Shown: one piece after another, positions 4,639-60,300 of the stretch
Layout: each line of letters begins with the position of its first letter
Position numbering within the stretch: position 1 is the stretch's first letter
Assembly (NCBI GenBank): GCA_903861045.1
Contig: CAIOST010000191.1
Location: 23,116 to 87,115 of the forward strand
Reading direction: 5' to 3'
Source: an uncultured bacterium
Lineage (GTDB): Bacteria; Verrucomicrobiota; Kiritimatiellia; RFP12; CAIWXQ01
DNA length: 64,000 bases
Program-made: the position numbers and the translations under genes
The notes under the pieces: model-generated
Told to the model about the DNA's origin: nothing
Database searches by the model: none
The model's input: only the letters and a program-made list of their open reading frames with translations

Positions 4639-5049
4639 TCAGGCCTTCTTGGTGTCGCTCTTGATGGCCTGGCGAACGGCCTTGTCGCGCACCGCGCCAA
4701 CAGTCTTCTTCGAGCCCTTGCGGGTCCGCGCATTCGTACGTGTGCGTTGCCCGCGCACGGGCAGCCCGCGCTTGTGCCGCGTGCCGCGGTACGAGCCGGT
4801 GCTGATCAAGCGGCGGATGTTCTGCGACACTTCCCGCCGCAAATCACCTTCCACCCGATAATGCTCCTGGATGTAAGCGGTGATCTGACGGATCTCATCC
4901 GGTGTCAGATCGCCAGCCTTTTTCGCTGGATCAATCTTGCATTGTGCTACGGTAATCTTAGCACGAGCAAGACCGACGCCAAAAAGGTACGCGAGCGCGT
5001 ACTCGACGCGCTTCCTGTCCGGTATATCCACACCCAACAATCTTGGCAT
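4639..5049 (-). CDS. rpsM: 30S ribosomal protein S13
   Basis: Internal start MPRLLGVDIPDRKRVEYALAYLFGVG is the canonical S13 N-terminus. The ORF-track N-terminal extension was rejected. Confidence 0.88.
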   Translation of the reverse strand: MPRLLGVDIPDRKRVEYALAYLFGVGLARAKITVAQCKIDPAKKAGDLTPDEIRQITAYIQEHYRVEGDLRREVSQNIRRLISTGSYRGTRHKRGLPVRGQRTRTNARTRKGSKKTVGAVRDKAVRQAIKSDTKKA

Positions 5050-36391: not shown

Positions 36392-39300
36392 TTACGGCAT
36401 CAGCAGCGCCGCGCTCACTCGATAGAACGCGCCCGCCGGCGCACTCTCATCCGTAAAGCTACGCATCTGCGCCGCCTCGCCCGGTTGCGCCTGCAGCGTC
36501 CCCGCCACCACCCACTGGCTCAAGTTAGTGGACCGCCAGACCGTGTAGACGATCGGATAGATATACACGGTCGGCGAACGCCAAGACAACAATGGCGCTC
36601 CCAATGCTGAGGCCGTGATACCCGGAATCTCAAACAACTTCCCGTCGCCTAGGTAGGCATCGAGATCCCCGATATGTCCGCCGAGCGAGCATGGGCTGTG
36701 CGTGTTCAATCCCAGCGCCAGCTCCACTCCATCCGGCAGTCCATCGTAATCGCTATCCATCAAATTCGGGCTGGCATCCATCGGGCCATCGGCATAGTCC
36801 CGCCAGAGTGCATACCCCTTCCAGGTGATCTCCTCCCCACTATGGGCGGCAATCGAACCGAAGTTCTGCACCTCCCACGAATCGGGCAGCTTGTCGTTGT
36901 CCGTATCGCGATCGCGCAGCATGAGTTTTACCCCGGCGGCAGGCAGGACCGACGGCCCCACACTGAACGTACGGATCTCCTGATTCCCGGCGCCGTCATC
37001 CGGCACCTGGTTGCGCACAAACCCCCAGGTTTCAGGCGTGTTCAGCAATCCATCGCCATTCAGGTCCAAGAACCCTAGCAGCGCATAGTTGCCCGACGGC
37101 AAGCCGCTGAAGGTAAAGGCCCCCTTCTTTTGCAAGATGACCTGTGCCACCGGGCGACCGCTGAAGCCCGGCACATCCTGCACGCGGTAGGCCTGCACAA
37201 TGAACGGATTCCCATGGTAGTCGTAGGTTGCCAGGAAGTTATCGGTGTTGTTCGGCACCAACGGGAAGGCCACGGAGAGAATCTTACCGGACACGTAATC
37301 CACCGTGCACTGGCTGTTGAGCCATGCGGCGGATGAGTTGTTCGTGTCGACCCGCAGCGTCACGCTGGTAAGATTAGAGGTGATAGCCCCCACGTCCGTG
37401 AAGACAACCAGGTTCGAGGCCATGCCCGCGCGACTGAGGCGCAACGACAGCGTCCCCGCCGTCACGACACTGTTGGTCAGCGCCTTATTGCTGAACACCT
37501 TTATCGCCCCGCCCACCCCGTTGAACACCCGCTCATCGGTGGCATGGTTCGCGACCTTGCCAAAGTATTCCAGCGTACCGCTGATGCTATACGGACCCAT
37601 CACCGCCACCTGCTGCTGGCCATTGCCCGGCAGAGAGCTGCCGGTGGTATCCAGCACCACCCGCGACCAGGCCGTATAGCTGTCGCCTAGGATGTTCGGG
37701 TTGTTCTTGGGCGTAACACGCCAGTAGTACACGCCATCTGCCATACTCAGGAACCCGGGTTCGGCATATTGCGGCTTGTAGCAATAGTGCGCCACCCCCC
37801 CATCATCGCGATAGAACGGCGCGCGTATCACCGCGCTCAGGATCACCGGACCCGTCATGCTGGTCTGGCGCACTTCCAAGGCAAATGCAGCCACGTCATC
37901 CGCCGCCGTCCACTCGAACTGCAGCGGCAGGGTATGCACCGTCGCGTTCAGCGGCGCTATGATCGTGGGCGTATCAAAAGAGGCCGTCGTCCAGCGCTGC
38001 TGGAATGTCGCGTACGGGATGGAAGGCACAAACGTATCCAACCGCCCGCTCGGGTTATGCATCACCGACCACCGGTACTGCGGCACATAATCACCGCTCT
38101 TAGGGGGCGTACCCAGGCCGGTCAGTTTGCCAATATGAACCAGGTCGGCTTCGGTGACGTACGCACGTGGCGCGCGCAGCGTAATATCCGCCACGGTCGT
38201 ATATTGCGTCGAGCCGGCCTGCATCCAGATGTAATCAACCTGCACACGGCTGCTGGTCACCCCTTCCGGCAGGGTCCACTTGAGGCGCGGGAAGCCGATG
38301 GGCGCATCCTGGAGCATGAACTCGACGGCTACCGCGCTCCACCCCACCGTGACAGGTTGGTAGATGGCGTAGCCACAGGGCTCGCCTGCATTCCACGACC
38401 CACTGCCATCCACATCCATGTAGGCGAAGAACCAGTTCTGGCCCTCGCGCAGGCCGCCTTCCTCGATATCCGCCGCGCTCAAGGACACGGTCTGCACCGC
38501 GCCCGTCGGGCCAGGGGCGACAAAGATCGCGTCCGGCGTGCCATCGCGCAAGTCGGTCGTGTAGCTCTCGATGCGGATCTCGCCGGAAGCCTCCCCGCCG
38601 TACCAGATGGTGGCCACTAGCGCTGGCTGCGGCTTGACGCTCGCTGCCATGGGATCTGACCCGGACATGTACTCGCCGTAATTGGACCAGCCGTCCTTGT
38701 CGGGATCGTTCGCGGCCTCATACTCGTACGGCAGCAGGCCATGCTTCGCCTTCCAAGCCGGCGGCAGGCTGTCCATCGGTGTGTAGAGCTCACCGAAGGT
38801 TAGATCCTGATCGCTCCAGCGGTTGTCATAATCCAGGAAGCCGTTTCCGATGCTATCTGGCCGGCGCGGATCCGTACCTGCCAAATATTCGGCCGCATTG
38901 CAAAGGCCGTCATGATCCGGGTCACCCCATGTGCCATTGTTGTCATCCCCGCCAGACGGATCCAGACCGTACTGGTTTTCCCACCAGTCCGGCAAGCCAT
39001 CGCCATCGCTATCGGCATTGAACGGATAATCCGCCGTGGCATTCGCATTGGTGGTGAAGTAGACACCCGCGCCGAGTTTACCGGCGTAGGCATCGAAGGT
39101 AAACGGCTCCACCCCCATCCGATAGGTGAAGTCTTCCAGCGTGGTGCCACCATCGGTACAGGGGAACATACCGACCAGGGCGACGCGCTGCATGGAGAGC
39201 ATCGGATCCGTGGTAATCGGCACGCTGCCGATCAACCCACGCAAGACTCTGGCATCCGGAATGTAAACACCATACTCCGTATCTGGGTTGCGTAGCGCGG

Positions 39301-42300
39301 AGCGCTCATCCGCGGTAATGCCAACCTGGAAATCAAAGTTGAAATAGGTTACCAGCCCCCGCTCGTTCCCCGACAGATTCCGGGTTGCGAGACCGCTCAC
39401 CAACTTACCCTTGTCATCCAGGCCGGCCATTTCCGCAGAAGCTAACGCTCGGTTCCAGATCCGGATTTCGTCCATCTCACCGACCAAGGTCTCGCCGAAC
39501 ACGCAGGGACCGGCCGCCGCATTCACATACCAGAAGTTCATAGGATCCGGAATAATATTGGGGATATCCGGCATGTACATGCGCTCCTGCTTCGTATCCA
39601 ACAGGCCGTCCACGTAGAGATAACAAGCGTTGGCATCGCGAATGTACGCCACATGATGCCAATTACCGTCATTTACCGGGATCTCACCCTCAATGTCATT
39701 CACATTGAAATCAAGCCCAGACAGCCATTCGATGCCGTTGGCGCCGGTATGCCAGACGCCATACGCTAGTGCGTACCGCCCCAACAACGTCCCTTGCCCA
39801 GACAGGCCCAGGCAATAATTGAAGTTGTCGTCCGTCTCGTTGCTTTGACTACGACGGGTGATCAGACGCCCACCCCCAGCGGTGGTCTTTACCCAGCATT
39901 CCAACGTCCAATCCTCACGGAGCATATCGACTGAGTCCCCGTTGGGCAGCAGCGAGGTCGCCGTCTCTTTCAAATGCCCGTTACCACTCAATTGCAAACG
40001 GCCGGCCGTGGTGTTGCCACTCCCCACCAACAGGGTGGAAGCCCGGTTATCCGCGATGGACTGATCGTCCTGCGCGATCTTCCAGAGGCGGATATTGGTG
40101 AGCTTGCCACGGAAGCCCGGCCCACCGAAGATCACGTCACCGGGGCCAATGGCGGACTGCCAGCCCACAAACGTATTGGCCACCTTAACGCCATCCACGA
40201 AGAGAGCCAGTTCGTTATCCAAGCCGCTGTTACTGATCGTAAACCGGGCCGCCAAATGCACCCACTGGTTGGTCGCCAGCCTATTGCCCGGCAACAGGGT
40301 TGCCACCACGCTGGCTCCGCTCAGGTCCGTGTCAAAGGCCGCATACGGCACACCATTGGACAAGCCCAGCTCGTAGTTGCGCAGGTTCTTGTCATACGTG
40401 CGACGGCTAATCAGCGGCATAACCCCGGCCGCGATCGCATCCAGTTTGACGTAGGTCTCGATGGTCCACGCAGACATGCTGTGACGTGCGGTGAAGCGAT
40501 TATTGACCTTGTCCTGCACGGTCACGATGTTGCCGGTCGCCGCCCCCGTGAAGGCCAGCGTACGCAACATGAAGGGGCTGCTGGAGTCCGCCGGGTTCGT
40601 ATCCCCGCTCAACTCCGCGCCGTCGTTACGGCCGTCGTCGTCCGTATCGGCATTTCCCGGGTTGGTATGGGTCAGATCCTGTTCCACCCCATTCGAGATG
40701 CCGTCGCCATCGGCATCCTCATCGTAGTCGCTGATGCCGTTGTTGTTCGAGTCGGCCTGCAACGGATTGGTTCCCGCCAGATACTCATACAGGTTGCGCA
40801 GCCCGTCGCCATCCGGGTCGCCATCGGCGCTGTCATTACCAGACGCGCTAAACGGATCGAGCCCATTGGCGGTCTCCCACCAGTCCGGCAGACCGTCGCC
40901 ATCCGAGTCACCCGTGGTCTTCACTACTTCGCTCGTTGCCAGGACCGCCCCCGCCGAGAGTTGGCCGGCATAGCGCCAGTCGCGGCGCCAGTCGGCGGCC
41001 AGGGTGAAGTCTTCCACCGTCGTACCGCCATCGTCAAAGCGGAACCACCCCGCCAGACCGTTAACCACCACCGCGCCACCGCCGCCGCCACCGAGCTTGG
41101 GTAGAATGTTACCCACATTCAGGCGGCCGCCCGTGACGGTTTTACCCGCTAGGGCCGGATCGGGATCCACGTTATTCAGAATGGCGGCCTTCAACGCCGC
41201 ATAGCCCAGCCGGTTATCGACCGACAGCACCAGCGCCGCCGCGCCCACCACCTGCGGCGCGGCCATGGAGGTGCCGCTCGCCAGACCATTGGAGCGGCCC
41301 ATTTCCGAGCCACCCATCGGCAGGGTGCTCAGGATGTCCACGCCGGGCGCGCCCAGATCCACGGTCTGCGCCCCGTAGTTACTGAAGTAGGCCAGCGCAT
41401 CACGATTATCCGTTGCAGCCACGGCTATGATGTTGTCGAGGTCATACGAGGCGGGATAGGCCGGCGTCGCGTCGTTGTCATTCGCATCGTTAGCCGCAGC
41501 GGCCACGAACAAATGGTCGTTGTTGCCGGCGGTCAGAATGGCATCATACAGCGCCTGCGAGTACTGGTAGCCGGCCCAACTGTTATTGCTGACGCGTGCG
41601 CCCATCTTCCAGGCATATTCGATCGCGGCCAGCGCCGCCGACAGGCTCAACCCGCCTACGTTGTCAGCAATCTTTAGCGCCATAAGCTTGACGTTCCAGT
41701 TGACGCCGCAGAGGCCGGAGCCCTCGTTGCCGCTGGCGCCAATAATTCCCGCACAATGCGTGCCGTGGCCGATGAGATCATCCATCGGGTCGGCATCGCC
41801 GGCGCCAAAGTCGTAGCCGTAGACGTCGTCCACATAGCCGTTGCCGTCGTCGTCAATGCCGTTGCCTGCAATTTCGCCCGGGTTCTTCCACATGTTGTTC
41901 TTCAGATCCGGGTTGGTATAGTCAATGCCCGTGTCAATCACGGCCACGACCACCGAGCCCTTCCCGTGGCTAACATCCCACGCCGTCGGCGCATCGATAT
42001 CCGCACCGGCCACGCCGCCGCCCGGCCCATTGGTACCCAGGTTGCGCAGCGCCCACTGCTGGCGGAAGAGCGGGTCATTCGGGGTGGTCTCGCAGAGTTG
42101 CAGGGCGTAGTTCTGCTCGACATACGCCACACGGCTGTCGGCGCGTAGCGCGGCCATCTTGGTCGCCAGGTCACTGCCGTCGGTGATCCGCACATGCAGC
42201 GCGGGTATGATGTTAAAGCTCTTAACCACGCTCACACCGGCAAACGACTGCGCCAGCGGCGCGACCGCCAGGCGTCCACCGGTTGGCTTCAACCCGATGA

Positions 42301-45300
42301 TCAGCTCATCCGCCGAAGCACCCGTGGCGAGCACCTGTGCGGAGGAACTCGCCTGCTGGCGACTGACCGCGGCGCTGGCGGCGGCGGTCGTGTTGCTGAA
42401 GCTCACCTGCTGCCCGCCGGCCATCTGCCGGATGGCGTCCCCGTTGTATGCAAACGCTGCGATGCGCACATCGTCGAGCAAGCCTTCGAAGCCGCTGGCC
42501 ACACCCACGCCGTTGGCGCTTAGGCGGCCACCACCGATGGTCAGCTCACCACCCAGCGCCATGTTCGCACCCGCGCCGGTCACCGGCGCCACATAGACAT
42601 CCTTGCGCCAAGCCACGAGCTCGCCGTTCACAAACAGCTTCAGCGCATTCGAGGCGGCCTGGTACGAGGCCGCCAGGTGCGTCCACTTTTGAGCAGCGAT
42701 CTCATCAAAGTGGTCCATGCCGTTTAACATCACCGTGCCGGCTTGGTTAGCCTCCACACGCATCTCGCCGGGCACGCCGTTGGTCAAGGTGCTGTACCTG
42801 ATATACGGCCGCAGCACGCCTGCCCGGTTCGCCACACCCAGTTCGTAATTTACCAGCCCATCGGTGAGCGTGCGCGCCACGATAATGCCCTCGGCACCAT
42901 TCGTCGGCCACACCCAGGCCGCCAGCGTGAACTGTTCATCCATGGCATGACGGGCCTGCGGCGGAACCAGCACACGGGCATTGCCGTCCAACGACAAGGA
43001 CCGATTGACCATCGGGCTAAGCGAGCTGAGCGGGTCCGTCATGCCCGGCGCCAGAATCGATGTGCCCATGACCTCTTGGTAGTCAGGCGTTCCGTCATCA
43101 TCCGTGTCGGCGAGATCCGGCATGGTCCCGAGTTGCTGTTCCAAGCCATTGGAGAGGCCGTCGCCATCCGCATCCAGCTCAGCATCGGCCACCAACCCGC
43201 CAAAGGTGGCGGCGGCCAGCGGATTGAGCCGGGCCCGGTATTCGTAGTAATTGTTCAACCCATCGCCGTCGGCATCATCCGCGCCCGTGTACGTCGAAAT
43301 CGAGCCAAACGCGGCGATCTCCCAGGCGTCGGGTAGTTCATCCGAGTCCTGGTCCACAAACTGCGTTGCCGCGATAGGTGTATGGGTGCTAACCAGCAGC
43401 GCATCACCAATCAACTCGCCAGCATGCGCCCAGTTGTTCAGCCAGTCGGCCCGCGGGGCCGCAAAGTCCTCCACCCGGTTGATTGCCAAACCGAAGGCGT
43501 TGGTCGTGGAGCTGACGCCAAACGGCCCGTCGTCGAAGCGATAGTAAAGCGCGGGACCATTAACCATATTCTCGTAGGTTTGGTACGCGCCGGCCGACAG
43601 GCTCGCCACGCTCTCAGCCACCGCCCAGATGCGAACTTCATCCAGCAGGCCGCAGAAGCCTTCGCCCACCCGCACCACAGGCGCGGCGGAACCGTACGCC
43701 AATGACGGCAGCACTTCCACCGCGGTTTGCGCCGCCAGTCGCCCATCGAGGTAGAGGCGCAGCTTGCCGGCGTCGGCATCATAGACACCCGCCAAGTGGT
43801 ACCACTGGTTACTGCGGCTCAGGGTCGTCGCCCCCTGCGCGATCCGGTTATATAGCACACCGTGGAACACACCCGCCAACCGCACATACGGCAAGTGGTT
43901 GGTAAAGCCTAGCTCATAGTTAACCGTTGTACCCAGCCCGCGCTGGATCACGCAGCCATTGCCCGGGAAGGCCGGATCCGGATTCACCCACGCTTCCACG
44001 GTCCAAGAGCCATTCAACGCCAGACGGGTTTGATTGACAGGCAGTTTCACATACCCCGTTCCCGACAGCATGAGCGCTCCGCTCTTGGCCGGCGACAGCG
44101 ACGCATTCGGCAGCGTAAACTGATGCGCCGTGGTGCCACGCACCTCATCAAAGTCGGAGATACCATCATCATCGGTATCCGCCAGCAACGGATGCAGACC
44201 ATAGCGTTCCTTCTCCGCGTTGGTCAAGCCGTTGGTCGTTCCCATCGCCCAATAGACCGGCGCCAGCTCGCTCCCCAGCAGTTGCCCGGTAGGCTGCCAA
44301 ACCGGATCACGCGGATCCTGCCGCAACTTGCCATCGGCATCCATCAGGTAGATATAGGCCACCGAGACGCCGCTGCTCGAGAGGTCGCGCGCGCCATCTT
44401 GCACGCCATCGCCGAAGCTGTCGCTGCTGTACGGGTTCAAGCCATACTGGATTTCCCACCAGTCCGCCAGTCCGTCACCATCACTATCCAGCGTGCCCGG
44501 CAGCTCACTGGCATCCGTACCGAAGTTGCCGAAGAAGGTGGCGCCGCCCACCAGCGTGCCGGCATGGATCCAGTGGTTGGCCCAATCGGCAGTGACGGCC
44601 GCGTTCTGCACCTGACCACCCTGCGCCCAGCCCTGACGACCGCTGCCGTAGTAGGTGGCGGCGGCATAAATATGATTGGTTACGCGCGCGTCCGCGGCCG
44701 CCGTGTTGTCGTCGAAGTGGTACTCCAGCACCGGGACCGACCCGCCACGCACCACCACATCATCCAACATACCCGCAAAGCCACGACCGATACGTAACGC
44801 CGCCGGTCCCAGCGCCATCGTCAGCGGCCGCAGTTCCGTGATCGCGGCTGCGACCAGTGCCTGCGGAGCCACCGCACTCCCTTGGTAGAGGGAAAGCTTC
44901 CCGCTGGTGGCATCGAAGATCGCCCGCACCACGCCCCACTGATTAGCCGGCAACGCGGATAGCTCCGGCGCCGTCAGCGTCACATTGGTGGTGGGTGTCG
45001 CGAACTGAACAAACGGCACATAGTTGGACGTGAGGCCTAAGCAGTAGTTGTACCGTCCATCCGCCACCTGCCGCGCCACAATCTCTGCGGTGCCGCTTGG
45101 GCGACTGGTCGGGAAGACCCAAGCCGAGATATCGAACGAGCTCAACGCCTGCTGCGCGTCTGGTGCGGCCAGCACGTAGCTAGTGGGCTGCCCATCCAGC
45201 CGTAGCACGCTCGTCAGCGCTGGGCTCGCCGCATCAGCGCCGTCCATATCGTAGCGCACTTCTAGCGCATCCGTTAGGCCGTCGTCATCCGTATCCGCTA

Positions 45301-48300
45301 GGCGCGGATCCGTGCCGGCCGCCTGCTCGGCCGCATTATTCAAGCCGTCGCGATCGAAGTCCTCTTCCCCATCCGGCGTGCCGTTGCCATCCGTATCCTT
45401 CTCCAACGGATTGGTGCCACACCAATACTCATAGAGGTTAATCAGACCGTCATCATCCGTGTCGCTTGAACCATCAATCACACCATAGAGCTGCTGGAAC
45501 CAGTCCGGCAGGCCATTCCCGTCGGCATCGCGCAGACCATAGACCGGCGCCCAATCTGTGGCCGTAACGGCGTCGTTCTGGCCATCGGCGCCTGCGCCCG
45601 CCGCCACGTCATCCGCCGTGCCCCAGAGGCCATCCGCTCCCGGCTTCGCATCCGTGACGATATCCACTGGCCCCGTCAGCGCATAGGCGGCCTCGTTCGG
45701 ATGCTTCATATCCTCGATCGTGAGCCCGCCGTCATCGAAGTGATAACCGGCCACCAGCGAGACGGCCCCGTCTACAAACGCATGCATGTTCTCGCTGATC
45801 AGACCGCCACTCCGGGCGAGGTTCCAGAAGCGCAGATCGTCCAGCTTGGCCTGCGTAAAGCGATTGGTGGCTCCGCCCATCACCAGGGGAGCGTCCAGCG
45901 CGAGCGTGCCGCTCTGCACGTTGCGCGATTCATTCATCTCGCGTGCACAGATCAGCATGCCGTTCTCATGGATACGGATGGCCTTGCGTCCCTCACCGTA
46001 CACGAAGGCGAGATGAACCCAGGCGTTCGTCGGCAGGGCATTGGCCAACAGCTCGTAGGCGGCCCCACCCGCCCCGCGCACCATCAGGTACGGGCGGTTC
46101 GAAGAGATGCCCGCGACGAACGACTGGGTGCCGTTGACAAGCAGATACCGCGCGATGGCGCCACTCTGGCTGGCGCTGCCCAGCTTGACCCAAGCCTCGA
46201 TCGTCCACCCCTTGGCCGCATTGAAGCCAAGGCCCTCGTCAGAAATCGTCTGGTCGGACGATCCCGAGACCGGTGTGCCCGGCGGACTCATCGTGCCATC
46301 CGGCCAGGTGATATCGGTCGTATGCCACCACGCTTGCGCGTTGTTGCCATTACCATCCGAAACCGGTATGGACTGCGGACCAAACTCCACATACTTCTCG
46401 CCGGGTTGACCTTCCTTGATCAGCACGCGGACGCGCGAATTCGGTAGGCTGCGATTGCTATAATTATCCATCCAGACGTTGTACACGCCCGTGGTGGCAA
46501 AGCCACGTGCCACCGTGATGTTCTCTGGACCAGTTCCAGGAATGTCATCGATGTCGAGGAACGAGCCGGGAATACGCAGGTTCGGCCCGGCATCCGCCGG
46601 CAAGCCGGGTCCACGGGCTGTCCACCCCATATGCCGTCCCAGGGGATCCACCAGCCAGGTGTCGAGGTCACCGGGTTGATCCCATTCCTGCGTCACACGG
46701 ATATCGGCCGGTGCGAAGGTGCCAGTGATCGTAACGCTGGCGGTACCCACCAGTCCTTCCGTATCCACCGCCACCACGGTCAGTTTGTTTACCCCCGAGC
46801 GAATAATAGCCGTGTAATCAAACGCCCGCGCCGCATCCAGCGTGAGCTCGGCCACAAAGAGGTCATTATTGTACAACCGCACATGGCTCAACGGCGTCGT
46901 GGTTGCAACCGATCCCTGCACGGCGGTGTACCGTACGGGTATCTGCGCGCCATCCTGCGGCGCGGCAATCGTCACGACCGGGCCACCGCGCGTGACCGCC
47001 GTAAAGGTAAACCGGTCCGCTCCCGGCACCGTATAGCCGTTCGGCACATTAGTCGCGCCCAGCACTAGGCTGCGCGGAATCCACGGACTCAACGAGTCCG
47101 CCGGACCGCTGACGCGATTTGTCACGCCGTATGCGGCGAGGCTGGGCGACAGCCGAGCGCCCACTTCTTCGCCATCCGCGAACCCATCATCATCCGTATC
47201 GGTCAGCGCCGGATTCGTGCCGAAGATGTCCTGCTCGTCGCCATTGCTCAGGCCGTCCCCATCGAAGTCCTCGTAATAATCACCGAGGCCGTTACCGTCC
47301 GAATCCGGCTCCAGCGGATCCGTGCGGATCAGCGACTCGGTCTCGTCAGTCAACCCGTCAAAATCGTTGTCACGGCCGTTGTGGACGAACACGGGGATCT
47401 CATTGGTCCAAGTCCCCGACACCAGCAGCATCAGGTTGCTCGTCCAGTTAACATTCGGCGGCAGGGCGTTTGGCGTTAGCGAGATGCTGATCAGCGGCAC
47501 CTGCGGCAGGAACGTTACGGTTCCGGTCAGCCCTACGACACTGACCTGTAGAGCCAGTTCCGCCCCCACTTCCGTGATCGGACGGTGCAAATCAAACACG
47601 CTAGGTTGCCCGGCCAGCAACCGCACCGGCGAAACCTGCACGCCCTGCTGCCAGGTGGTGATCGTCGGCGGGATTACCGGCAGCGTCATATAGGCCACGG
47701 GATACCCCACGGCCATCGCCGTCACCAGCACGTTGGACGTCACGCTCACACCGGTCAGCGGGAAGTAACCATCGTCGAAGCCGGCCGGGATCGTCACCAT
47801 TTCCGGCACGGTTAGCGCTGCCGGGTCGCTCGAGAGCAGGTAGACGGCCTGTGGTTGCTCTTGTGAACCGACACTACGGTTGCGATGCACCTGCATGGTG
47901 ACCGTATCACCAGCGGCCACATTGCCACCGGTGTCGACATCCAACAGCAGGGTCAATCCCAGTCCGTTGTACACCGTCACCATGACCGTCTGCCCGCCGA
48001 TGGTCAGGACGCCATCGTGCAACCCCATACCTTCGGCCAGCGCCACACCGGTAATCGTAATGGTGGCATTGGTGGCACCTGCGGCCAGCGTCACGCTCTC
48101 GGCGTTAACCGTGAAGAGCGAGGTGTCGCTGCTCAAGACCTGATAGCTCATGTTCGAAGCTGCCAGGGAGGCCGGGCGCGAGATAGTCAGCGTGACCGAA
48201 TGTCCAACCTGCACCGTCACAGGCTTCGGAGAGATCGTCAGAACATCCGGTATGCAGGGATTGGAGCCTGCCAAGTACTCCTGGATATTGCTGATGCCAT

Positions 48301-51300
48301 CGCCATCGGGATCGCCATCCGCGCCCGCGATGCCCGAAGCGTCGTTGGGATTCAGGCCGCACCCGGTGTAGAGGTTCTCCCACCAATCCGGCATGCCATC
48401 GCCATCCGTGTCCACATCCACCACGAACGGCGCTTCGCCGGCCGCGAAGTTAGTGAAGGTTGCGCCCCCCACCAGGGTAGCCGCATGCCGCCAATTCTGC
48501 CGCCAATCGTGCCGGTAGTTGGTGGCAAAATCCTCGATCTGGCCGGTGAACCAACCCGCCTGCATGCTGGTACCTACCGTGCCGGCCTGACAGGAAGTGC
48601 CGTCGTCGAAGCGGTAATAAGCGACGAGACCCGACTCGGCGCCGGTCAACACGCGGGCTCGCAAGGCCGCAATCTCCTCGGCCGTACGCACCACGTTCCA
48701 GATACGCACTTCTTCCAGCACGCCGGCAAACCGTTGCCCGATGCGCTGTACCACCGGTCCCATACCGCTGGTACGGGGATTGTGAGAGCAGATCTTGTTG
48801 GTGACCTCGACGCCATTGGTATAGAGGCGCAAATACTGCCCCTGCACCATGTAGGTAGCGGCCACATGCGTCCAGTTCGTGCCGGCCGGGATTGCCAAGG
48901 GAGCGATCAGGGTGTTGGAGCCAAAGCCCACCACCGGACGGCGGTTGCCATCCAGACCGAGGAAGTAGTTGGTCACCCCCGGCTCAAGCTCGCGGTACAG
49001 GAGTGTGCAAGCGTCGTTAAGGCCAGCCACCGGACGGACCCAGGCTTCCAACGTGAAGTTGGTGACGCCAAAGCGCCGCTCGCCCAGCGTCGGCATCGCC
49101 ACATAATTCGTCGCCGAGCCGGATAGGACCAACCCGCGCGAGACCTGCGGGCTTAACGAGGAGCCCGGGTTGTAACCGGCTACCTTCTCTTCCAGATCGC
49201 TCTTGCCATCGTCATCGGTATCGCGCAGGCGCGGATCCGAACCGTGCGACTGCTCGTCGAGATTCTTCAGCCCGTCGCCGTCAAAGTCCTCGTCCCCGTC
49301 CAACACGCCGTTGTTGTCCGTATCACGGGCCTTGGGATTCGTGTCGCAGTAGTACTCGTAGAGGTTGCAGAGGCCATCACCGTCCTCGTCGCCATCCGGC
49401 TCAGCCACCAGCGAACCAAAGAACAACTGTTCCCACCAATCGGGCAGACCGTCGGTATCGCTGTCCACATCGCCGAACACCGGCGCGAAGCTGTTGGTGG
49501 TAAACGTCACACCGTGCAGCGCGTCCTGCCAATCCAGCGGATGCATGGCGTCTTCAGCCGTCAATCCGCCATCATCGAACGAGAACCGAGCCACCAAGCC
49601 CAAGTTGTTCGCCGTCAACGGCACGGACGACAAAGCCGCCACCGCATCGAAGTCGGCCCCTGGAGCGCCGTCATCCATGGCATAGCTATTTTGTCCGTTA
49701 TCGGTTAACCGCACAAACCGATAGATTTGACCTTTCGCCACGCTGGCGTCGATGTCGACGGCGGACAGCGCGCCACCGATGTTGCCGATCGTGACCCACT
49801 TCTCGCCGTCCTGGCTGATTTCCAGCGTCACGCCTTCGACCTCGCCATTACACCCCCACACGTACAGGTCGGGAGCGACGGTGCCATCGCCGATCAAAGC
49901 GTTGTCCGTGAACTGCAAGGTTACCGTACCACGCTGGCCGAGCGCCAACCCGTGTTGGGCGCCCGTGAGGTAGTTAATATAATCTGGCGCCCCCAAGACA
50001 GCGGCGGTATTGGTCCACTGGTTGTTCGGCCCCCCGTCACGGTAAGCTACCACCGCATCCGCAAATGCTCGATCACCCATTTGGACGTATACCCCGCTGT
50101 ACGTCGCCGGTGTGAACGTCCCCACGAATTCATTCGATTCGGCAACAGAGGCCGAGTACGCGGCGATTTGATCGGCGTAGGTCGCGATCTGGTCGAACGA
50201 ACGCACCACATTCCAGCAGCGCAATTCATCCAGATGACCTTGGACCCCCTCGCCCACCAGCAATGTCCCATCGCCCATCGCCGGCGGTAGCAGCGACTGC
50301 TGGGCCTGATAAGACTCGCCATTGATGTAGAACGACAGACTACGCGCTTCGGCACTCCACGTGCCTGCGAGGTGGATCCAGGTATTGGACGGTAGCGACC
50401 GCGTGCCACCAGCCTGCACCAGCAATCCGGTCGCGGTCTCAAATTGTACCGCAGGGATGTTGTGCGTTACGCGTAGACCCAACGTCAGGCGGCCGGCCGC
50501 ATTCACGTGGGCCACCAGATTACCCGTCTCGTTGGTCGAGGCCAGATTGATCCAGCATTCCACCGTCCAATTCGTCAGATTGAAGCGATCCGCGCTGCCC
50601 ACGCTCACGCCGGCCACAGGATCTCGTACACCGGTGCCCGTCAGCACCAGACTGCGGGATACCGCCGGGCTCGCCGCACAAACCGGGCTGGTGATACGGC
50701 GCCCGTCCGCCTTATAGATCGATGGATTGACTTCGTCGCCATCCGACACGCCATCGTCATCGGTATCAGCGTTCAACGGGTTCGAACCCAAGGCGAACTC
50801 AGCGGCATTGGAGAGGCCGTCGCCATCGGAATCTTCCTCGCCATCCACGAGGCCGTCATGGTCAGAGTCCGGCATGCGTGGATCGGTGCCGCACAGGTAC
50901 TCCTGCAAGTTGGAGAGGCCATCGCCGTCCAAGTCATACGAGGCGGCATACTCCGGATGATTAACCGTTTCGATACGGTCGGGATCGAGGTTGAAGCGTT
51001 GCTCGAACCAGTCCGCCATGCCATCGCCGTCGGAATCCAGCCGGAAGGGCGTCTCGTTGGCCCATGCCGCCACATTCGCCACATAGTTCGTCAGGTACTG
51101 GCGATCCATGTAGGTGAAGTGAATCGCGGTGGTGGCGGAGAAAGTGCCGGCATAGTTGCCATCCCGCAGATGGACAAAGTCCTCCACCTGGCCACTCCGG
51201 TTGGCCGGATCCATGCCGTCACACATCGGCCAGTAAGCTGCCAGACGGGAAGAAAGCACTTGGATCGGGGAATACGCGATCGGCGCATTGACCAGTGAGC

Positions 51301-54300
51301 CGTACCGAACGCTGGCACCTTCGACAAGGGTGCCATAGATCACTCTGGCCGCTGTATCCTCCACAAACTTCGCCCCGCGCAGGGAGACGTTGTCGAAGTC
51401 GAAATACGAGATCAGACCAGGCACGGACGGTAGAATCTTCGTCAGGCGCTGCGCTTCGATCTCGCTTCCGGTCAACCCCCGATCGAAGATGCGGATTTCA
51501 TCCACATCGCCCACGAACTTCTTACCGACGGTTAGCAGGCCGGCATTCGTCGCGGCATAGTAGGGTTGGTCGGTTTCATTCCAGCCGTAATAGCCATTAC
51601 CGCCCCAAGACGGCCAATACCCATACCAATAGGAGTAGCCATAGTAATCCCAGCCATTGTTCAAGCCATAATTATTGTTATTATTGGCTAGATACTTACG
51701 CGGCACGGCCGGGTCACCCGCAGCCATATGCCACGTGACATCGCCGATGGCCGGCAGGTTGTTCTTCGGATCAATGGTGATCGCATCCTGGGCGATACCG
51801 TCCACGGACATCGCAGCATCTTTGCCGTCGAACGTAAACGCCATGAAATGCCATTCGCCATCGGCCACGGTGATATCGCCTTGCAGGGTGGCGGTAGCCC
51901 AGCGATAGACCGCCTCATCCCACCCCCAATAATAACCCCAACCCGCATCCACACGGGCCTGGAAGGCGAAGGTAGCTTGCGCAAACCCATCGGCATCCAC
52001 GCTCAAGCGGTAGTTGGAAATCGGCTGGCCATCATCACCGCTACCCGAGTCGCGATCGATGATCGTACCCGCCTGCGTGGTCTTGAACCAAGCTGACACG
52101 GTCCACTGATTCAGCGCTACATCCCGCTGGTCGCCGCGCGTCATCCATCCGCTACCATCGAGCGCGAGTACGCCCAGCGCCGCGACATCCTCCCCGAAGA
52201 GCAGCGTGCGGTCGCGCAGGCGTGCGATCTCGCCGTACGGACGGGCTACATTCCAGATGCGCACTTCCTGCAGGTCACCGCACAGGTTAGTGGCCATGAC
52301 CAGCGGCCGATATTGGCGGCCGAGCGCCGGCGTGGCCTCCGTGATCACCCGGCTGAGGGCATTCCCCTGAAAGGAAAGGTCTAGCTTGGTCTCAGCCTCG
52401 CCCGCCTCTTTCCCCAGCCGCGCCGTCAGCGTTGTCCAAACATTGGTCGCAAGGACGCGATCCGCGCCCGCCTCGACCTTGTACTCAACGCCGCGATCCG
52501 ACTCGAAGCGGGTATACGGCAGATTGTTCGTACCAATGCCCAGTTCGAAGGTGACATAGTCAGCCCCCCCAACGCGAGCCCGGCGCTGGACAAGAATGGC
52601 ATTCTTCCCGGTGGCGGACGGCAGTTGGTTCAACCGCACCGTGGCCTCGACCGTCCAAGTGGCGAGGTTAAAGCGCTCCCCGACCTCATCGGTGCCGGGC
52701 ACGCTTGCCGGCACCGTGATCGTGCCGTTGCCATTTTCGTTGCGTATATAGCGCATCACATACGGCGAGAGCGAATTCAGCGGATCTGTCCCCATGGCGA
52801 CTTCTTCGCTATCCGTCAAGCCGTCATCATCGGTGTCGCGCCGGCCGGGATTGGTGCCCCGGGTCTGCTCATCGATATTGGACAACCCGTCACCGTCGCT
52901 ATCCTTGAGCGCATCCGACACCCCGGTCGCGCCCGTATTCACAGCATGCGGATCCGTGCCCGCCAGATACTCGTACAGGTTGCTCAGACCATCGCCATCG
53001 GGGTCGCCAGCGGGGCCGTTTTCGCCCTTGGTGTCATACGGATTCAACCCATGCGACGCCTCCCAGCCATTGGGCATGCCGTCCTGATCATAATCCAAAA
53101 GGGTTGGATTTATCGGTGCCCCGAGCGGCGCATCTACGCTGCGCGCATTCCCCAGCAGCGTGCCGGCATTGGCCCAACCGCTGTTCTGATCGGAGGGTTT
53201 CGTGAAATCCTCAACCTGTCCGTGGGACCAAGTCGGGCACAGACTGGTGCCCGTTGCGCCGCCTTGATAGGCCGTACCATCGTCGAACCGCAGGTACGCA
53301 ATCATCGTGCTCGGCGGTTCCAATTGGATCTGACGCAAGGCCCCGAGGCTGCGTGCACCCGGATATAGCGACCAGATGCGCACCTCATCCATGTAGCCTG
53401 CGAACCCGGCACCCACCGTCGTGACTGGGAAGCCCAGACCGTTCAGCGCCGGACGCTTGGTGGTGACCATGTCCGCTACAATTTCGCCATCCACTTCCAG
53501 CCAGAGACGGCCCGTGTCGGCATCAAAGGCCGCCAACACATGCCGCCACTCGTTCAAGTAAAGTGGGTTCGTATAGGTCAGGGACACGCTGGCGGACTTG
53601 TCGTAGGACGTGAACTGGGCTTGTACCTGTCCGCTCGCACTAAGCCCCAGACTGTAGTTATAGGCATTGCTGGCGGCCAGCGAAGAGATCAGCTTCGCGC
53701 CCGAAGTCCAACCGGTGGGACAAATCCACGCCTCGACCGTCCACGAGGGCAACTCAAAGCGCGCCTGACTGGGCAACTGTACGCCCCCCGTCGCAGCCCC
53801 ATCCAAATGTAACACGCGGTCCACCAGCGGACTGGTGGAGAGCCCCGGATTCCAATGATTGAGGACCTCGGTCTGGTCATCAATCCCATCATCATCGGAG
53901 TCGGCCAGCCTGGGATCGGAGCCAAAAACCTGCTCCGTGGCGTTATCGAGTCCGTCCCCATCGTAATCTTCGCGATTGTCCGGGATACCGTCGCTATTTG
54001 AGTCGCGACTGCGCGGATCGGTACCAGAGAGATACTCATAGTAGTTAGACAGGCCGTCCCCGTCGAGATCGCCACTGCTCGTGATTTCCGGATGATCCAG
54101 CGACTGGGAAGAATTCGGGTCCAGATTATAAAGAGCCTCGAACCAGTCCGGCATGCCATCGCGATCCGAATCAACCCCCAGCAGGGAGTCGTCGTCCGTG
54201 ACATCTACGAAGTGGATGGCATTGGTATGAGAGAAGGTACCGGCGTAGGAAAAATCCATGCGGTGGATGAAATCCTCGACCTGCCCCCTGGTCCGACCGG

Positions 54301-57300
54301 CGTATGCGCCATCGTCCATTGGCCAATAGCCGGCCAGTTTATAACCCACCACCTCGATCGGCGAGTACTGCACCGGCGCATTGACATTAGCGCCATTTCC
54401 GACCGCAACCGCATCAATCAGATAAGTAAAGGCCCCCGTGCCCGTCTTATCCATAATGGAATCGGGCTTCGCCACGCCCACATCATCGAAGTCAAAATAG
54501 GCGGCCAGATGCGGGTCGGTGGGCGAGGCCTTGCGGTACTGGGTGGCGGCCACCGCATCCACACTCATCCCTTGATCGAAGACGCGGATCTCATCCAAAA
54601 TCCCGACAAACTTGTTACCGATGGTAAACAACCCATCCTGCGTGGCCAACGAGAAGGTGTCGGCCGTATCCGGATTCAGGTTATACCCGAAATCATACCA
54701 ATACCAATAGTAGTAGTACGGATTGTAGTTGCCGAACTTGGTATAGCCTCCAGGGCGGTCCCCTTCATTCGGCGCCATGTGCCAGGTTACGGCTGCCATG
54801 TTCGGCAGATCGTTTTCCGTATCCATCGTGATCACATCCTGAACCATGCCATCGACATACAAGGCGGCATCCTTGCCATCGAAGGAGAAGGAAACGAAGT
54901 GCCAGTTGCCATCGCCCAGCGTGGTGCTAGAGGTCAGCTTGACGGTCGCCCAGCGCGCCATATTGTTGTTGCCATACCAGTAGTACCACCCCCTGTTAGG
55001 CTGGACGTAAGCCTTGAAGTCGAAGGAGGCCTCGACATTGCCCTCCGGCGTGATGTCCACCTTATAGTTGTAGATGGGTTTCGCATCGTCGGCCAAGCCG
55101 GCTTCGCGCTGTACGATCGTACCGCCCCGCGTGGTCTTGAACCAGCTCTGGATCGTCCAGCGTGACAGCCGGACCTTATCCTGCGTGTTGCGCTGCAGGA
55201 AGCCATTCGTCAGGGAAAGCACGCCCAAGGTCGCCACATCCTCACCGAAGAGCAGCGTGCGGTTGCGCAGTTTGGTAATCTCGGCATCGGTACGGCCCAC
55301 CGTCCAGATGCGAACTTCATCCACGTCGCCCCGCAGGTTGGTGCCGATCGCGAGCGGAACGTTCTGCTTGCCGAGCACGGGGTGCACATCCGCCGGCAAC
55401 TGCGTGGCCGTCCAGACCGTCTGATAGAAGAGGTCCAACTGACGGTGCTGATCCTGGCCACCGCTCGCCAAACGCGCGCTCAGCGAGACCCATTCACCCG
55501 TGACCATCGGCCGCCACGAGCTAACCTTGTATTCCCGACCCAGATCACTCTGGAACCGGGCGTAGGGCAGGTTGTTCGTGTCAATCCCGAGTTCAAAGGT
55601 CACATACCCGGACAAACCGGCTTTGCGCTGGATCAGAATGACGTTCGTCTTGGACTCGGAAGGGAGTTGACGCAACCGTACACCGGCCTCGATGGTCCAG
55701 GTCTCCAAGTTGAACCGTTCGCCCGTTTCATCCTTGCCAGGAATGATGCCGTCAACCGTCAACACGCCGCTGCCGGTCTCATTCTGCACGTAGCGCATCA
55801 CATAGGGGCTGATCGAACTACGCGGATCGGTGCCCATATTGAGCTCGTCGCCATCCGAAAGTCCATCATCATCGGTATCTACCATATCTGGACGGGTCTG
55901 ATGCCGCTGCTCTTCGGCGTTCGAGAGACCGTCGCCATCCGCATCTTCCAGTCCGTCCACCGTGCCATTGCCATCGCTGTCCACGATGCGCGGATCCGTT
56001 CCGGCCCAGTACTCGTACAAGTTGCTCAAGCCATCACCGTCCGGATCCCCGTTGGCCCCATCGGCACCACCGCTGCTGCGAGAATTGAGGCCGTAAAAGA
56101 CCTCCCACCCATTCGGCAACCCGTCCCCATCGCTATCACCCAGAGAATCACGGACCGGGCCGGAAGCTGGATTTAGCACCATCGCCGCGCCCCCGCGTAG
56201 CGTGCCGGCATGGCGCCAGCCGGTCTTCCAATCCTGCGGACACATAAAGTCTTCTACCTGTCCCGTATTCCACCCGACCTTGCGGCTGGTATTCGTACTG
56301 GTGCCATCATCGAAGCGCAGGTAGGCGACTAAGCCCGTACTCATCCCCGTGATGGGTGTTGCCAGCTTGGCCAAGCTGGGGGCCGGCCGGCAGACATTCC
56401 AGATCTTCACCTCATCCAGATAGCCGGCAAAGCTCTCACCTACCACCGTGCTGATAGGTCCAACTCCGTTCTGGGCGTCCGTTTTCGAGACGTATAGCTC
56501 CTGCTCCACCACCCCGTTCACAGTAATGTTGAGATAGCCACTCCCCGAATTGAACGACGCGGCCACATGCGTCCAGACGCCCGTGCTCAACGCGTTGGAA
56601 TAGCAAATACCCACATCGGCTACGTGATTGCCCGCCGTGAACTTGGTCACGAGTCGTCCAGCGGTATCCATGCCGAGGAAATAGTTCCAGACACCGGGTT
56701 CGACGCTGCGACCGATGATGGTCGCGGTGGTGGCGGGCAGGCTGGTCGGGCATATCCAAGCCTCGATGGTCCAGTTCGTCGCAGCGAACCGCAACTGCGG
56801 CGGCAACTCGACATAACTGGTGCTGGCTCCATCCACGACGAGGACGCGATCCAGCAGTGGCGCTAGCGCGCTAGCCGGGCTGGTGTAGAGTTCGTCACCG
56901 TCCAGCACGCCGTCATCATCCGTATCCGGTAAGCGCGGGTCTGAACCTTCGACCTGCTCATCGCCGTTACTCAGCCCATCGCCATCAAAGTCCTCTACGG
57001 CATCCAGCACGCCATCATTATCCGTGTCCCCAGCCATGGGATTCGTGTCGCTATAGAATTCGTACAGGTTGTTGAGGCCGTCGTGGTCCGAGTCGCCCGT
57101 CGGAGTAGCGCCATCCGCAAAGTATAATTTCTCCCACCAATCGGGCAGGCCGTCGTGGTCCAGATCCAATTCCCCGGCGAAGTCCGCAAAGGTACTGGAA
57201 GTGACGTTCGTGGTGCTGATCGCATACTGCCATTCCAGCCGGTGCGTGAAGTCCTCAGCCGAGGTGCCGCCGTCGTCAAACGTATACCAAGCTAGCGGAC

Positions 57301-60300
57301 GATCCGGCAGCGTCGAGGAGATCGCAAAGATGGCTGAAACATCCACGCCGGGAGCCTCATCCCCATAGTTATTCCCGCCGGTATCCGAGAGTCGCACATA
57401 CGCGAACTGCTGGCCTGCGGTCGAGGGCACCTGGTCAATATCCACCGTCACACAACCATTACTCCCGAGGCCAAAGGTGCCCATGCGGGTCCAGACAATG
57501 CTGTCCGCGCTGATGTCCACTTTGACACCCGCTATAGCCCCCCCCATGAGGATCGCGAGATCGGGACTCCCGTCGCCGTTGCCAACCAGGAAGTTGTCCG
57601 TGAACTTCACCACCAGCGAACCACCTTCGCCGAGGCTAACAAATTGGTTGGTGGCGTCCGCCCAGTACTCGGGCACGCCGATGGCCAGCGCCGGATTGGT
57701 GTGTTTGTTAGTTGGGCCACCTTCGACATAGCTCACCACTTCGTCAGCGAAGGCGCGGTCCCCCAGCACGACGGTCATCAACCCGAAGGTCTTGCGTTGC
57801 ACATCCTCGGGCAGCACGATGCCGCCCTGCGAGCCGAAGCCCAACAAGCCGCCCATGCCATCGGCGATATCCGCCGCCGTCCGATCCACACCCCAGATCG
57901 CCACGTTATCCACGTGGCCGATGAGGCCCCCACCGATGACGGTCTGGCCAGTGCCTTGCGCACAGGCGGATATCACCGTCTGTGCCTGGTAGGCGCAGCC
58001 GTTGATATACAACACCAGCGTGTGCCGGTCCGGATCAAAAACGCCCGCCAGGTACGTCCAGGTATTGGCTGGCAGGGCCGCGGCATTCGTGCCGCCGGCG
58101 AAATAGTGCATCCCTGCCGCTGTCGTAAACTCGACCACCGGTTGATTATTCACCACACGCAGGGCGAAGTTCGTCTGGCCCGTCGTCAGCGTGCGAGCCA
58201 CCACGGTGCCGGTCTCGTTACTGCTGGCCAACTGCACCCAAGCCTCCAGCGTCCATGCCCCGACGTTGAAGCGCTCATCCTGCGGCACGGTGACGACCGT
58301 GCCATCCAGGACCAGAGAGCGCTGCACCAGCGGACTGCGGGCGTCCACCGGACTCGTGATCCGGCGCCCATCCGCCTTGACTACCAACGGATTGACCTCG
58401 TCGCCGTCCCCTACGCCATCATCGTCCGTGTCCATCAACCCGGGATTCGTACCGTACAGGTCCTGCTCCTCACCATTGCTCAGGCGATCCCCATCGGCAT
58501 CCTCGTCATAGTCACTGACCCCATCGCCATCCGTATCCCAGAAGAACGGATCCGTGCCCGCATAGTACTCTTGCAAGTTCGTCAGCCCATCGCCATCGGC
58601 ATCCGTTTGGCCATCCGAAGAACGGTTAGCGTCCAACCCAAAGTACATCTCAAACACATCTGGCATCCCATCGCCATCCGCATCCAGGCGCTGCGGATGC
58701 CCGGCCGGCAGCGACAACATCCAGTTGTAGAAATTCGGCACGTTGGTGGTGGCGCGCGACAAGTCCAACGGGTTGAGCGACACGAAGTCAATCGCGTTGG
58801 TGGTAGGCACCAGCGTGCCGCGGTATGCCGGTTGATCGGTATGGAGGAAATCCTCGACCGCGCCGACCCGGTTGGTGCCCCGCCCATCATCCATCGGCCA
58901 GTAGCCTGCCAACTCACTGCGCAAAACATCCAGCGGACGCATCAGCACCGGCGCATTCGCATCCGTATCCACCGGCAATTGGGCGCTGCCCATTAGCACA
59001 CCGAAGTTGCCACCGACCCGTGCATCTACATAAGGCAGACTGGTCGCTTTGATATTATCGAAGTCGAAGTAGAGCGCCAGCGCGTCCAGACTGGGCCGCT
59101 TGCCCAGTTCCGCCGCCACCTCGGCCGGCGCGCGTACACGACTATAAATCGCCACTTCGTCGATCAGGCCGCTGAAGCCACTGCCCATGGTCAGGCTCCC
59201 GCTGCCTGTCAGCGCCACGGGGGCCCCCGCCCAACCTAAGATCGCTGCCGGATCCGTGCCCCAAGTAATGCGCGGATCGAATACATTCGCGGGCGGGAAG
59301 CTCTCGCGCGCCATGATCCGGCCATTCACGACGACACTAATTTTGTTCCCGTCGAAGCTCACCATCAGATGCGCCCACTCATCCTGCTTCAGTTGCGCCG
59401 CCTGCGCCGTGAGCGTAAAGCTCGCCGGCACGTTGAAAACTTCCACCGTCGGCTCAGCCAGCAGATTAGCCAGCGGATCCGCCAGCAACGGCGGAGCCAC
59501 TTCCTGATACACGGGCGCGTAGAACCCAATGGTCAGCATGGGCTGACCGATGCCTGACAGGCCCAGTTGGTAGGCCGTCAAGTTATCTGAGTCCCGCCGC
59601 ATGATCACGCCGCCACCCGCCGCCGGCTTAACCCAAGCCTGCAACGTCCAGATCGGCAGCGCCACATCGGACGAATCGAACACGAGCAGATCGCCCCCCG
59701 ACGACGACAGACTACCAGCCCGCGCCACATCCGTACCGAAGGTCAAAACCTTGTCGCGCAGAGCCGCGATCTCATCATTGCCGCGCACCGTACGCCAGAT
59801 GCGCACTTCATCCAGATCACCCGCCAGATTCTTGGCCAGAATCAGATCGCCAGACTCCTTGCCGCTAGCCGGTAGCACATTCGCGATGACACGCGCGGCT
59901 TCGTTGGCACCCACAAAGACCGACAGCTTAACCGCGCCGCCCTCCTCGAGGGCTCCGAACCGCCCGGCAATGCTTATCCACGTATTAGTGGCGATCGCTA
60001 GCAGCGACTCCGCCTTATATTCGTTGCCGGCGGCATCTTGGAAGCGCACATACACATGACAATTCGTCGTAACGCCCAGCTCAAACGACACCAGACCGTT
60101 TGGCTCGCAATAGCGCCCGATCACGACCGCATTATTAGTCGGCGCTTGCTGCAAGCGGATCATGGCCTCCAAGGTCCACTGGGACAGGTCAAACCGACTG
60201 CCATTCGGATCCAGGCGACTGATATGGCCAGGTACCGCAATATACCCCGTGCCATCATTATGGATATAGCGCATCACGTACGGCGAACCCGGATCGACCG

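Follow-up and report, generated by a model that had tools for sequence, protein, structure and literature searches.

A complete subtilase zymogen unit, a candidate site of self-cleavage, deep within a giant LamG/TSP3 repeat protein of an uncultured Kiritimatiellia bacterium

The DNA analyzed here (the window, 64,000 nucleotides) is from an uncultured bacterium of the Kiritimatiellia (contig CAIOST010000191.1). Its minus strand contains a giant open reading frame (ORF; 36392..64000) for a protein with arrays of LamG and TSP3 repeats. A complete subtilase zymogen unit (residues 7225-7633), consisting of a prosegment and an S8 catalytic domain, is embedded in this protein. The catalytic residues are intact, the unit is conserved, and related loci share its embedding. 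The best reading, which we consider probable, is self-cleavage that parts the upstream array from a product consisting of the S8 domain and its tail; we infer the cleavage, its site and the fate of the fragments.

The zymogen unit and its relatives

The frame is open from position 64000 downwards for 9,202 codons, followed by a stop codon (36392-36394). Thus, the protein has at least 9,202 residues, and its N-terminus lies beyond the window edge. The GTG at 63949, proposed as start by the ORF listing, is not the real start, as the frame is open to the window edge; an automatic annotation pipeline given a fragment of this kind would place the start wrongly. Residues are numbered from the window edge, and all features described below are on the minus strand. 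Pfam finds 19 significant Laminin_G_3 stretches, many TSP3_bac repeats and a single Peptidase_S8 domain.

The S8 catalytic domain (residues 7304-7633, 41102..42091) is deseasin-like according to Pfam, PDB and structure matches. It scores above the threshold for family S8 (S8A) in Pfam (E 1e-51) and matches the crystal structure of deseasin MCP-01 (3vv3) with an E-value of 3.5e-86 and 51-52% identity. The nearest S8 sequences are from stand-alone proteases, and the closest relatives are ordinary degradative enzymes such as deseasin. The catalytic unit is classified as an ordinary S8A member that is nearest to deseasin. The residues required for catalysis are Asp7356 (41933..41935; motif DTGID, from 41935), His7412 (41765..41767; HGTHCAG, from 41767) and Ser7578 (41267..41269; GTSMAAP, from residue 7576, 41275), together with the oxyanion-hole Asn7504 (41489..41491). 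Their order is that of family S8. In alignments with 74 and 120 homologues, the columns of His, Asn and Ser are invariant and that of Asp is nearly invariant (Asp in 228 of 231 aligned units). A preliminary description of this DNA had reported an intact Asp/His/Ser triad, which holds upon re-alignment. The motif NNSWAG forms the substrate-binding strand and not the oxyanion hole. The embedded protease is apparently active.

The preliminary description had also recognized a complete subtilase zymogen in mid-protein. Its landmarks, VAYVEQNY at residue 7291 (42130-42107) and the DTG, HGTHCAG and GTSMAAP motifs, are indeed all found within 41110-42340 and in one ORF. The prosegment covers residues 7225-7303 (42092..42328) and ends in ...VAYVEQNYALQLC. 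In Pfam, it is assigned to PF22148 (Fervidolysin_NPro-like) with 26.8 bits (cut-off 21), and it has no match to the I9 model PF05922. When used as a single sequence against PDB, it gives only a chance match, and a profile of homologues is needed. This profile matches the prosegments of subtilisin BPN' (1spb_P, E 5e-5) and fervidolysin (1r6v, E 1.4e-3), as well as the propeptide of subtilisin E (1scj_B) and unprocessed pro-subtilisin E (3whi). Both AlphaFold models confidently give it the classical beta-alpha-beta-beta-alpha-beta fold. Based on the profile matches and this modelled fold, the piece is assigned as a true subtilisin-type prosegment. The earlier term I9 propeptide is therefore correct with respect to homology (I9-type, as shown by the match to 1spb_P) but not with respect to the Pfam family. 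Modelling had been suggested as a check for docking of the prosegment onto the catalytic domain. Both domains fold confidently, but the solved zymogens superpose on either model over the catalytic domain only, in a comparison made without coordinates or predicted aligned error (PAE).

The unit is bracketed by two linkers that are predicted by AlphaFold to be disordered. The upstream linker (residues 7191-7224, 42329..42430) is rich in Ser, Thr, Ala and Gln, has a predicted local distance difference test (pLDDT) score below 50 in model 1, and joins the last upstream LamG domain to the prosegment. It is the least conserved region and shows no signal-peptide-like sequence. The downstream linker (residues 7634-7650, 41051..41101; pLDDT 30-40) is Gly-rich and joins the S8 domain to the next FRFDDGG...EDF/TSP3/LamG unit. 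An internal translation start was considered and rejected, as there is neither a stop codon nor a signal-peptide-like stretch ahead of the prosegment. This, together with the same embedding in related loci, speaks against the S8 domain being a separately translated gene.

The predicted autoprocessing bond is Cys7303|Glu7304 (42089..42094), based on two independent alignment registers. In the profile alignment, this position corresponds to the C-terminus (...AHAY) of the BPN' prosegment, while the pairwise alignment with the mature deseasin chain (3vv3) places the first residue of that chain there. The sequence across the junction is ...NYALQLCETTPNDPLFR, and the predicted new N-terminus is ETTPNDPLFR. 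A junction directly after VAYVEQNY, as first proposed, is not supported, since the prosegment aligns to end five residues further (...ALQLC7303). In the predicted junction (ALQLC|ETTPNDP), P4 is Leu and P1 is Cys. The orthologues have Leu or Phe at P1 and Leu at P4, which fits the S1 and S4 pockets of subtilisin. P1 is hydrophobic throughout (Cys, Leu or Phe).

Genomes were scanned with the S8-to-LamG junction as query, using one genome per species and a 10 kb upstream flank per locus. This resulted in six loci (L001-L006) with identities that range from 82% to 35%; their sources are uncultured Lentisphaerales, Victivallales and unclassified metagenome-assembled genomes. All six have an S8 unit with an intact Asp/His/Asn/Ser set, inside an ORF that runs off the upstream flank. 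The distance from the catalytic Ser to the C-terminus is 1,624 residues in the window and 1,625-1,650 residues in L001, L002, L003 and L005. The S8 domain aligns with its orthologues nearly without gaps and at 72-91% identity, compared to 50-81% in the flanking arrays, 34-74% in the prosegment and 21-59% in the upstream linker. For the S8 domain, the ratio of nonsynonymous to synonymous substitution rates (dN/dS), computed against L001 and L002, amounts to 0.05 and 0.12; the other regions range from 0.13 to 0.37. The ratio is below 0.4 in all regions, so that purifying selection extends across the giant ORF. Of all regions, the S8 domain shows the highest conservation and the strongest purifying selection.

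For a wider view, 1.84 billion representative proteins were searched exhaustively by HMMER with residues 7160-7720, and the 143 best-scoring new representatives were analyzed. Their ranking by summed score is biased towards proteins with several copies, so that the following counts are existence proofs and not frequencies. In 109 of the 143, a unit starts more than 400 residues into the protein. The prosegment is included in 97 of these, and 88 of these 97 proteins have the full Asp/His/Asn/Ser set. Two to four units are present in 79 of the 143 proteins. The composition of the junction is the same for internal units and for N-terminal, ordinary zymogens. In a neighbour-joining tree of the catalytic domain, computed without support values, the embedded forms are not a single clade. 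The public names of these proteins are generic ("LamG-like jellyroll fold domain-containing protein", "S8 family serine peptidase").

At least 12 complete LamG/TSP3 proteins (4.3-7.2 kilo-amino acids, kaa) have a signal peptide and one unit located 3,300-4,400 residues from the N-terminus. One of these, P0128, is collinear with window residues 5544-9199 (63% identity). At a metagenomic locus (L033), the ORF is complete and codes for about 4,500 residues, with an N-terminal Sec signal peptide, LamG/TSP3 arrays and an internal unit (PF22148 at 2206-2275, S8 at 2318-2584). The preliminary description had considered the giant protein an envelope protein. This is not borne out: the complete relatives have Sec signal peptides, and neither a transmembrane segment nor a known anchor was detected in the C-termini of the family. 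In every lineage examined, the unit is inserted precisely where one LamG domain has ended and the [FY]xFDDGG…EDF strand of the next repeat unit follows. In one further locus (L036; ENA ERZ25039459 contig_58047), numerous short TSP3/LamG gene calls surround the unit-bearing protein P0002, all on one strand; indel errors in the assembly have probably fragmented a giant gene here.

A second group of proteins lacks LamG and has two to four complete prodomain and S8 units per chain (P0121, P0124, P0131, P0135 and others). P0124 (1,474 aa) and P0121 (3,094 aa) each have three PF22148/S8 repeats, and in P0121 fn3, MAM or Ig-type domains come after every repeat. In three two-unit proteins (P0165, P0167, P0179), the triad of the N-terminal unit is degenerate (SADL, DRDA and GQDP at the Asp/His/Asn/Ser positions) and the internal unit is intact.

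The window protein itself may contain a second protease module far upstream. Its first 41 residues (63878..64000) are the C-terminal tail of an S8 domain (module 1) and align with the S8 end of the embedded unit (module 2; ...GKTVTGGRLNVGNI...). The adjoining TSP3/LamG regions are also related. Block 1 (residues 1-803, 61592..64000) and block 2 (residues 7594-8390, 38831..41221), each comprising an S8 tail and TSP3/LamG repeats, are 49% identical over 818 aa, compared to about 31% for other LamG blocks. Because of this difference, it is concluded from the sequence that an S8 domain and a block of about 760 residues were probably duplicated within the gene. The genome scan and a metagenome scan yielded no orthologue that covers module 1, and a protein search with block 1 returned only two short fragments.

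Self-cleavage and its alternatives

The prodomain of S8 proteases is an intramolecular chaperone. Its autocatalytic removal is needed for activity, and catalytic mutants fail to autoprocess (PMC7200643). Given this rule, a zymogen that is complete, conserved and under selection in the middle of a chain is most simply explained as a self-cleavage point, and a cut at the junction would part the upstream array from the rest. The many internal or tandem prodomain and S8 units in other proteins fit such a polyprotein logic.

We propose that the unit (upstream linker, I9-type prosegment, deseasin-like S8 domain and Gly-rich linker) is a functional zymogen inserted at a domain boundary of the giant protein, with the carrier being a Sec-exported, calcium-binding lectin-repeat (LamG/TSP3) protein of a Lentisphaerota-like bacterium. 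The chain would emerge outside the cytoplasm from its N- to its C-terminus. Because Sec export runs in this direction, the prosegment would fold before the catalytic domain, as in the stand-alone enzyme, and would chaperone it. The catalytic domain would then cut the junction in cis, at the predicted bond Cys7303|Glu7304. Two products would arise: a LamG/TSP3 fragment from the upstream part, with the prosegment at its end, and an S8 protease with a LamG/TSP3/C-terminal tail of about 1,570 residues. This tail may bind the substrate, mirroring the P and PKD domains of stand-alone deseasin. The prosegment would initially stay bound, as inhibitor or as tether, and its removal would free the active protease. 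If the paralogous upstream module acts alike, at least three products would result.

Some points weigh against this proposal. When the triad was restored in CspA or CspC of Clostridioides difficile, autoprocessing was still absent (PMC7200643); for this reason, an intact triad with a prodomain is insufficient as proof. A Cys at P1 is unusual. The N-terminus of the window protein, and hence its export route, lies beyond the window edge. Finally, of the two protease modules with homologous LamG blocks that the preliminary description had claimed, the S8 tail and the paralogous block of module 1 are confirmed, but this module is visible as 41 residues only, its prosegment and catalytic residues being beyond the window.

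The first alternative to self-cleavage followed by release also involves a single cut, but here the prosegment would never leave, as in PCSK9 and as reported for Clostridium CspB. The two halves would form one non-covalent assembly, with the S8 domain mainly as a self-made joint or latch and less as a free protease. We consider this unlikely, while noting that it would account for the retention of the prosegment, which is recognizable in 104 of 129 internal units, and for its dN/dS of about 0.33, which indicates a constraint weaker than that on the S8 domain. Structures of PCSK9 and CspB are among the fold relatives of the unit. However, conservation of the oxyanion Asn and of the substrate-binding strands is as high as in free proteases, and the kinship with degradative proteases such as deseasin also argues against a mere latch.

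It is rather improbable that there is no self-cleavage at all, with the unit being latent or having a binding or regulatory role and the giant protein acting as a single-polypeptide adhesin. The AlphaFold models would be consistent with this, as zymogen docking is not reproduced in the above comparison. The Csp pseudoproteases function unprocessed (PMC7200643), and the few relatives with a degenerate triad in one unit (P0165, P0167, P0179) point in the same direction. Against this, the Asp/His/Asn/Ser set is intact in the window and in all six related loci, and no region of the protein has a lower dN/dS than the S8 domain. Moreover, the tail of an uncut prosegment would block the active site, so that there would be no reason for catalysis to be conserved.

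Embedded proteases also invite a comparison to polymorphic toxins, because subtilisin/S8 domains are among the in-built processing proteases of Sec- or PVC-exported toxins (Zhang et al. 2012; PMC3482391). The S8 domain would then release a C-terminal effector for delivery into another cell, which we regard as very improbable. The C-terminal region (residues 8391-9202, 36395..38830; ending in ...GAFYRVSAALLMP) has no Pfam or NCBIfam match above cut-off, including toxin families. It is 60-67% identical in L001-L003 and is thus conserved among orthologues rather than polymorphic. RHS and filamentous repeats are absent. The giant ORF is followed by a convergent shikimate-dehydrogenase-like (aroE-like) gene and then by dnaX, with no immunity gene. 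Lacking a variable toxin tip and an adjacent immunity gene, the protein is not assigned to the polymorphic toxins, and this reading is largely refuted.

An artefact, in which a misassembly, lost stop or frameshift joined a stand-alone protease gene to LamG genes, might be suspected from the stand-alone origin of the closest S8 sequences and from the fragmented relative P0002/L036, but misassembly, sequencing-error fusion and pseudogenization are excluded, because the in-frame embedding recurs in independent assemblies (L001-L006, L033 and dozens of representative proteins), the prosegment lacks a preceding signal peptide, and all regions are under purifying selection.

Beyond the window protein, we offer a broader proposal as a tentative one. 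Internal I9-type prosegment and S8 units may be a general, as yet unnamed device, namely programmed self-cleavage points in secreted "poly-zymogen" precursors that yield protease-lectin subunits. The complex of prosegment and S8 domain might be a reversible non-covalent clasp, and degradation of the prosegment might time the release and activation of the subunits. It is possible, if doubtful, that such a class exists and is widespread, with the window protein as one member.

It is explicitly considered an open question if giant bacterial proteins persist as one chain or are cut into pieces (PMC11573180; bioRxiv 10.1101/2023.11.21.568195). With Ser7578, a predicted scissile bond and the complete unit, the locus provides a concrete case for this question. 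The family includes complete members with a signal peptide that are of tractable size (about 4.5 kaa), and simpler tandem zymogens exist (P0124). If self-cleavage is confirmed, annotations as a single "LamG domain protein" or "S8 peptidase" would need revision. The surface biology of Lentisphaerota and Kiritimatiellia would gain a protease-lectin system, which probably attaches to and digests glycoprotein-rich particles.

Repeat architecture and genomic setting

Each repeat unit of the giant protein opens with a strand, [FY]xFDDGG…EDF, similar to the one with which a LamG_3 domain begins (e.g. residues 7650-7700, about 40900-41050). This is followed by TSP3 calcium-binding repeats and then by the main part of the LamG domain. 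The order looks as if the TSP3 repeats sit within or between split LamG units. Two paralogous LamG units have a Tyr/Trp/Gly/Asn-rich insert, which is …NPYYYYWYWYDFGYN… in one (residues 3095-3106, 54683-54718) and …GWDYYGYSYWYGYWPSWGGNGYYGW… in the other (residues 4116-4129, 51614-51655).

A domain of about 160-190 aa with the motif …GDRAFADxVVxYxxGGP… is present twice (residues about 2075-2235, about 57296-57778; residues about 4640-4795, about 49616-50083). It is without a Pfam family above cut-off, and one copy has a weak, sub-threshold match to F5/8 type C (discoidin). Within residues 5250-6000 (about 46000-48253), an Ig-like stretch with weak Big_7/Glucodextran_B matches likewise breaks the LamG array. 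This region also holds a segment with the motif DLDTWLVDP…LDIDDIPGTGPE, which we take to resemble a DUF2135/YfaP-type domain.

The last 10-15 residues of the protein carry the motif …G[FL][FY][RK][LVI]xxxx (36395-36427). The same motif is found in P0123, P0128-P0130, P0143, P0156, P0175 and others. It may be a sorting signature or the signature of a last beta-strand. The remaining genes in the window represent an ordinary chromosome (EF-G, SecY, DnaX, FabF/FabH, an ammonium transporter and tRNA-Leu).

Comparison with known systems

Deseasin MCP-01 from Pseudoalteromonas sp. SM9913 (S8A), the nearest characterized relative, is a stand-alone enzyme with a signal peptide, a propeptide, a catalytic domain, and P and PKD domains. 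The C-terminal PKD domain binds and swells collagen, and binding domains at the C-terminus boost the degrading activity of the catalytic domain (PMC11294657). In contrast, the unit in the window is located about 7,200 residues into a giant protein, and its tail of about 1,570 residues consists of LamG/TSP3 and unassigned domains. The prosegments of subtilisin BPN', subtilisin E and fervidolysin are homologous to that in the window and share its fold, the ...VAYVE... motif and the junction register. The window prosegment differs in that it is not N-terminal, with thousands of residues ahead of it, and its cleavage and docking are putative.

In the gingipains of Porphyromonas gingivalis (RgpA and Kgp), a surface protease is made with a prodomain and multiple adhesin domains as one precursor, which is then processed. 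Unlike the window protein, gingipains are cysteine peptidases (C25) of about 1,700 aa with an N-terminal prodomain and type IX export. The term "proteinase-adhesin polyprotein" has been applied to them (Pavloff 1995, as cited in PMC5445135).

Clostridioides difficile CspBA has two subtilase units in one chain, and the second has its own prodomain in mid-protein (PMC7200643), like the unit embedded here. According to its authors, autoprocessing of the internal unit would part it from the upstream portion (PMC7200643). However, CspA is a pseudoprotease, the two parts are separated by another protease, YabG, and the fusion, an intracellular spore component of about 1,100 aa, has no lectin arrays. 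The pairing of a degenerate with an intact unit in P0165, P0167 and P0179 recalls the pairing of active protease and pseudoprotease in CspBA. As in gingipains and CspBA, one ORF of the window codes for a protease together with separate binding modules.

The S8 precursor WprA of Bacillus subtilis is processed into CWBP23, which derives from the propeptide, and CWBP52, the protease, both of them stable proteins of the wall (PMC8767453). In WprA, the piece upstream of the junction is therefore a product in its own right. WprA differs in being a 96 kDa precursor with one module and without repeat arrays.

Two computational proposals are also related. In polymorphic toxins, an embedded S8 domain is listed as an in-built processing peptidase (PMC3482391); these proteins are from other phyla and have RHS repeats with toxin tips, unlike the window protein. 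In giant Omnitrophota proteins, S8 or C39 domains have been proposed to cut their carrier (bioRxiv 10.1101/2023.11.21.568195). The "Dockerin-type" Omnitrophota giants share bacterial TSP3 and discoidin repeats with the window protein, the discoidin-like match being weak here. Omnitrophota giants reach 30,000 aa or more, contain transmembrane and SecA-like regions as well as glycosyl-transferase/hydrolase or dockerin sets, and have their S8 domain close to the N-terminus. The window protein is not assigned to them (Archaeovorins or Dockerin-type), as only LamG, TSP3 and S8 were found and its relatives are from Lentisphaerales and Victivallales. Neither proposal describes a prosegment in mid-protein, a cleavage site or a LamG array.

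In the searchable literature, we found no description of this LamG/TSP3-S8 family or of the tandem-zymogen class, and nothing specific on tandem or multiple subtilase domains or on LamG/TSP3 proteins of Lentisphaerae and Kiritimatiellia. The earlier statement that such an organization has not been described is nevertheless too broad, given the gingipains, CspBA, WprA, and the S8 domains of polymorphic toxins and Omnitrophota. That a protease is embedded in its own large carrier and cuts it is an idea already known. What appears to be new is a full prosegment and S8 zymogen deep in a LamG/TSP3 array, in a family conserved in Lentisphaerota and relatives, and apparently present twice in the protein.

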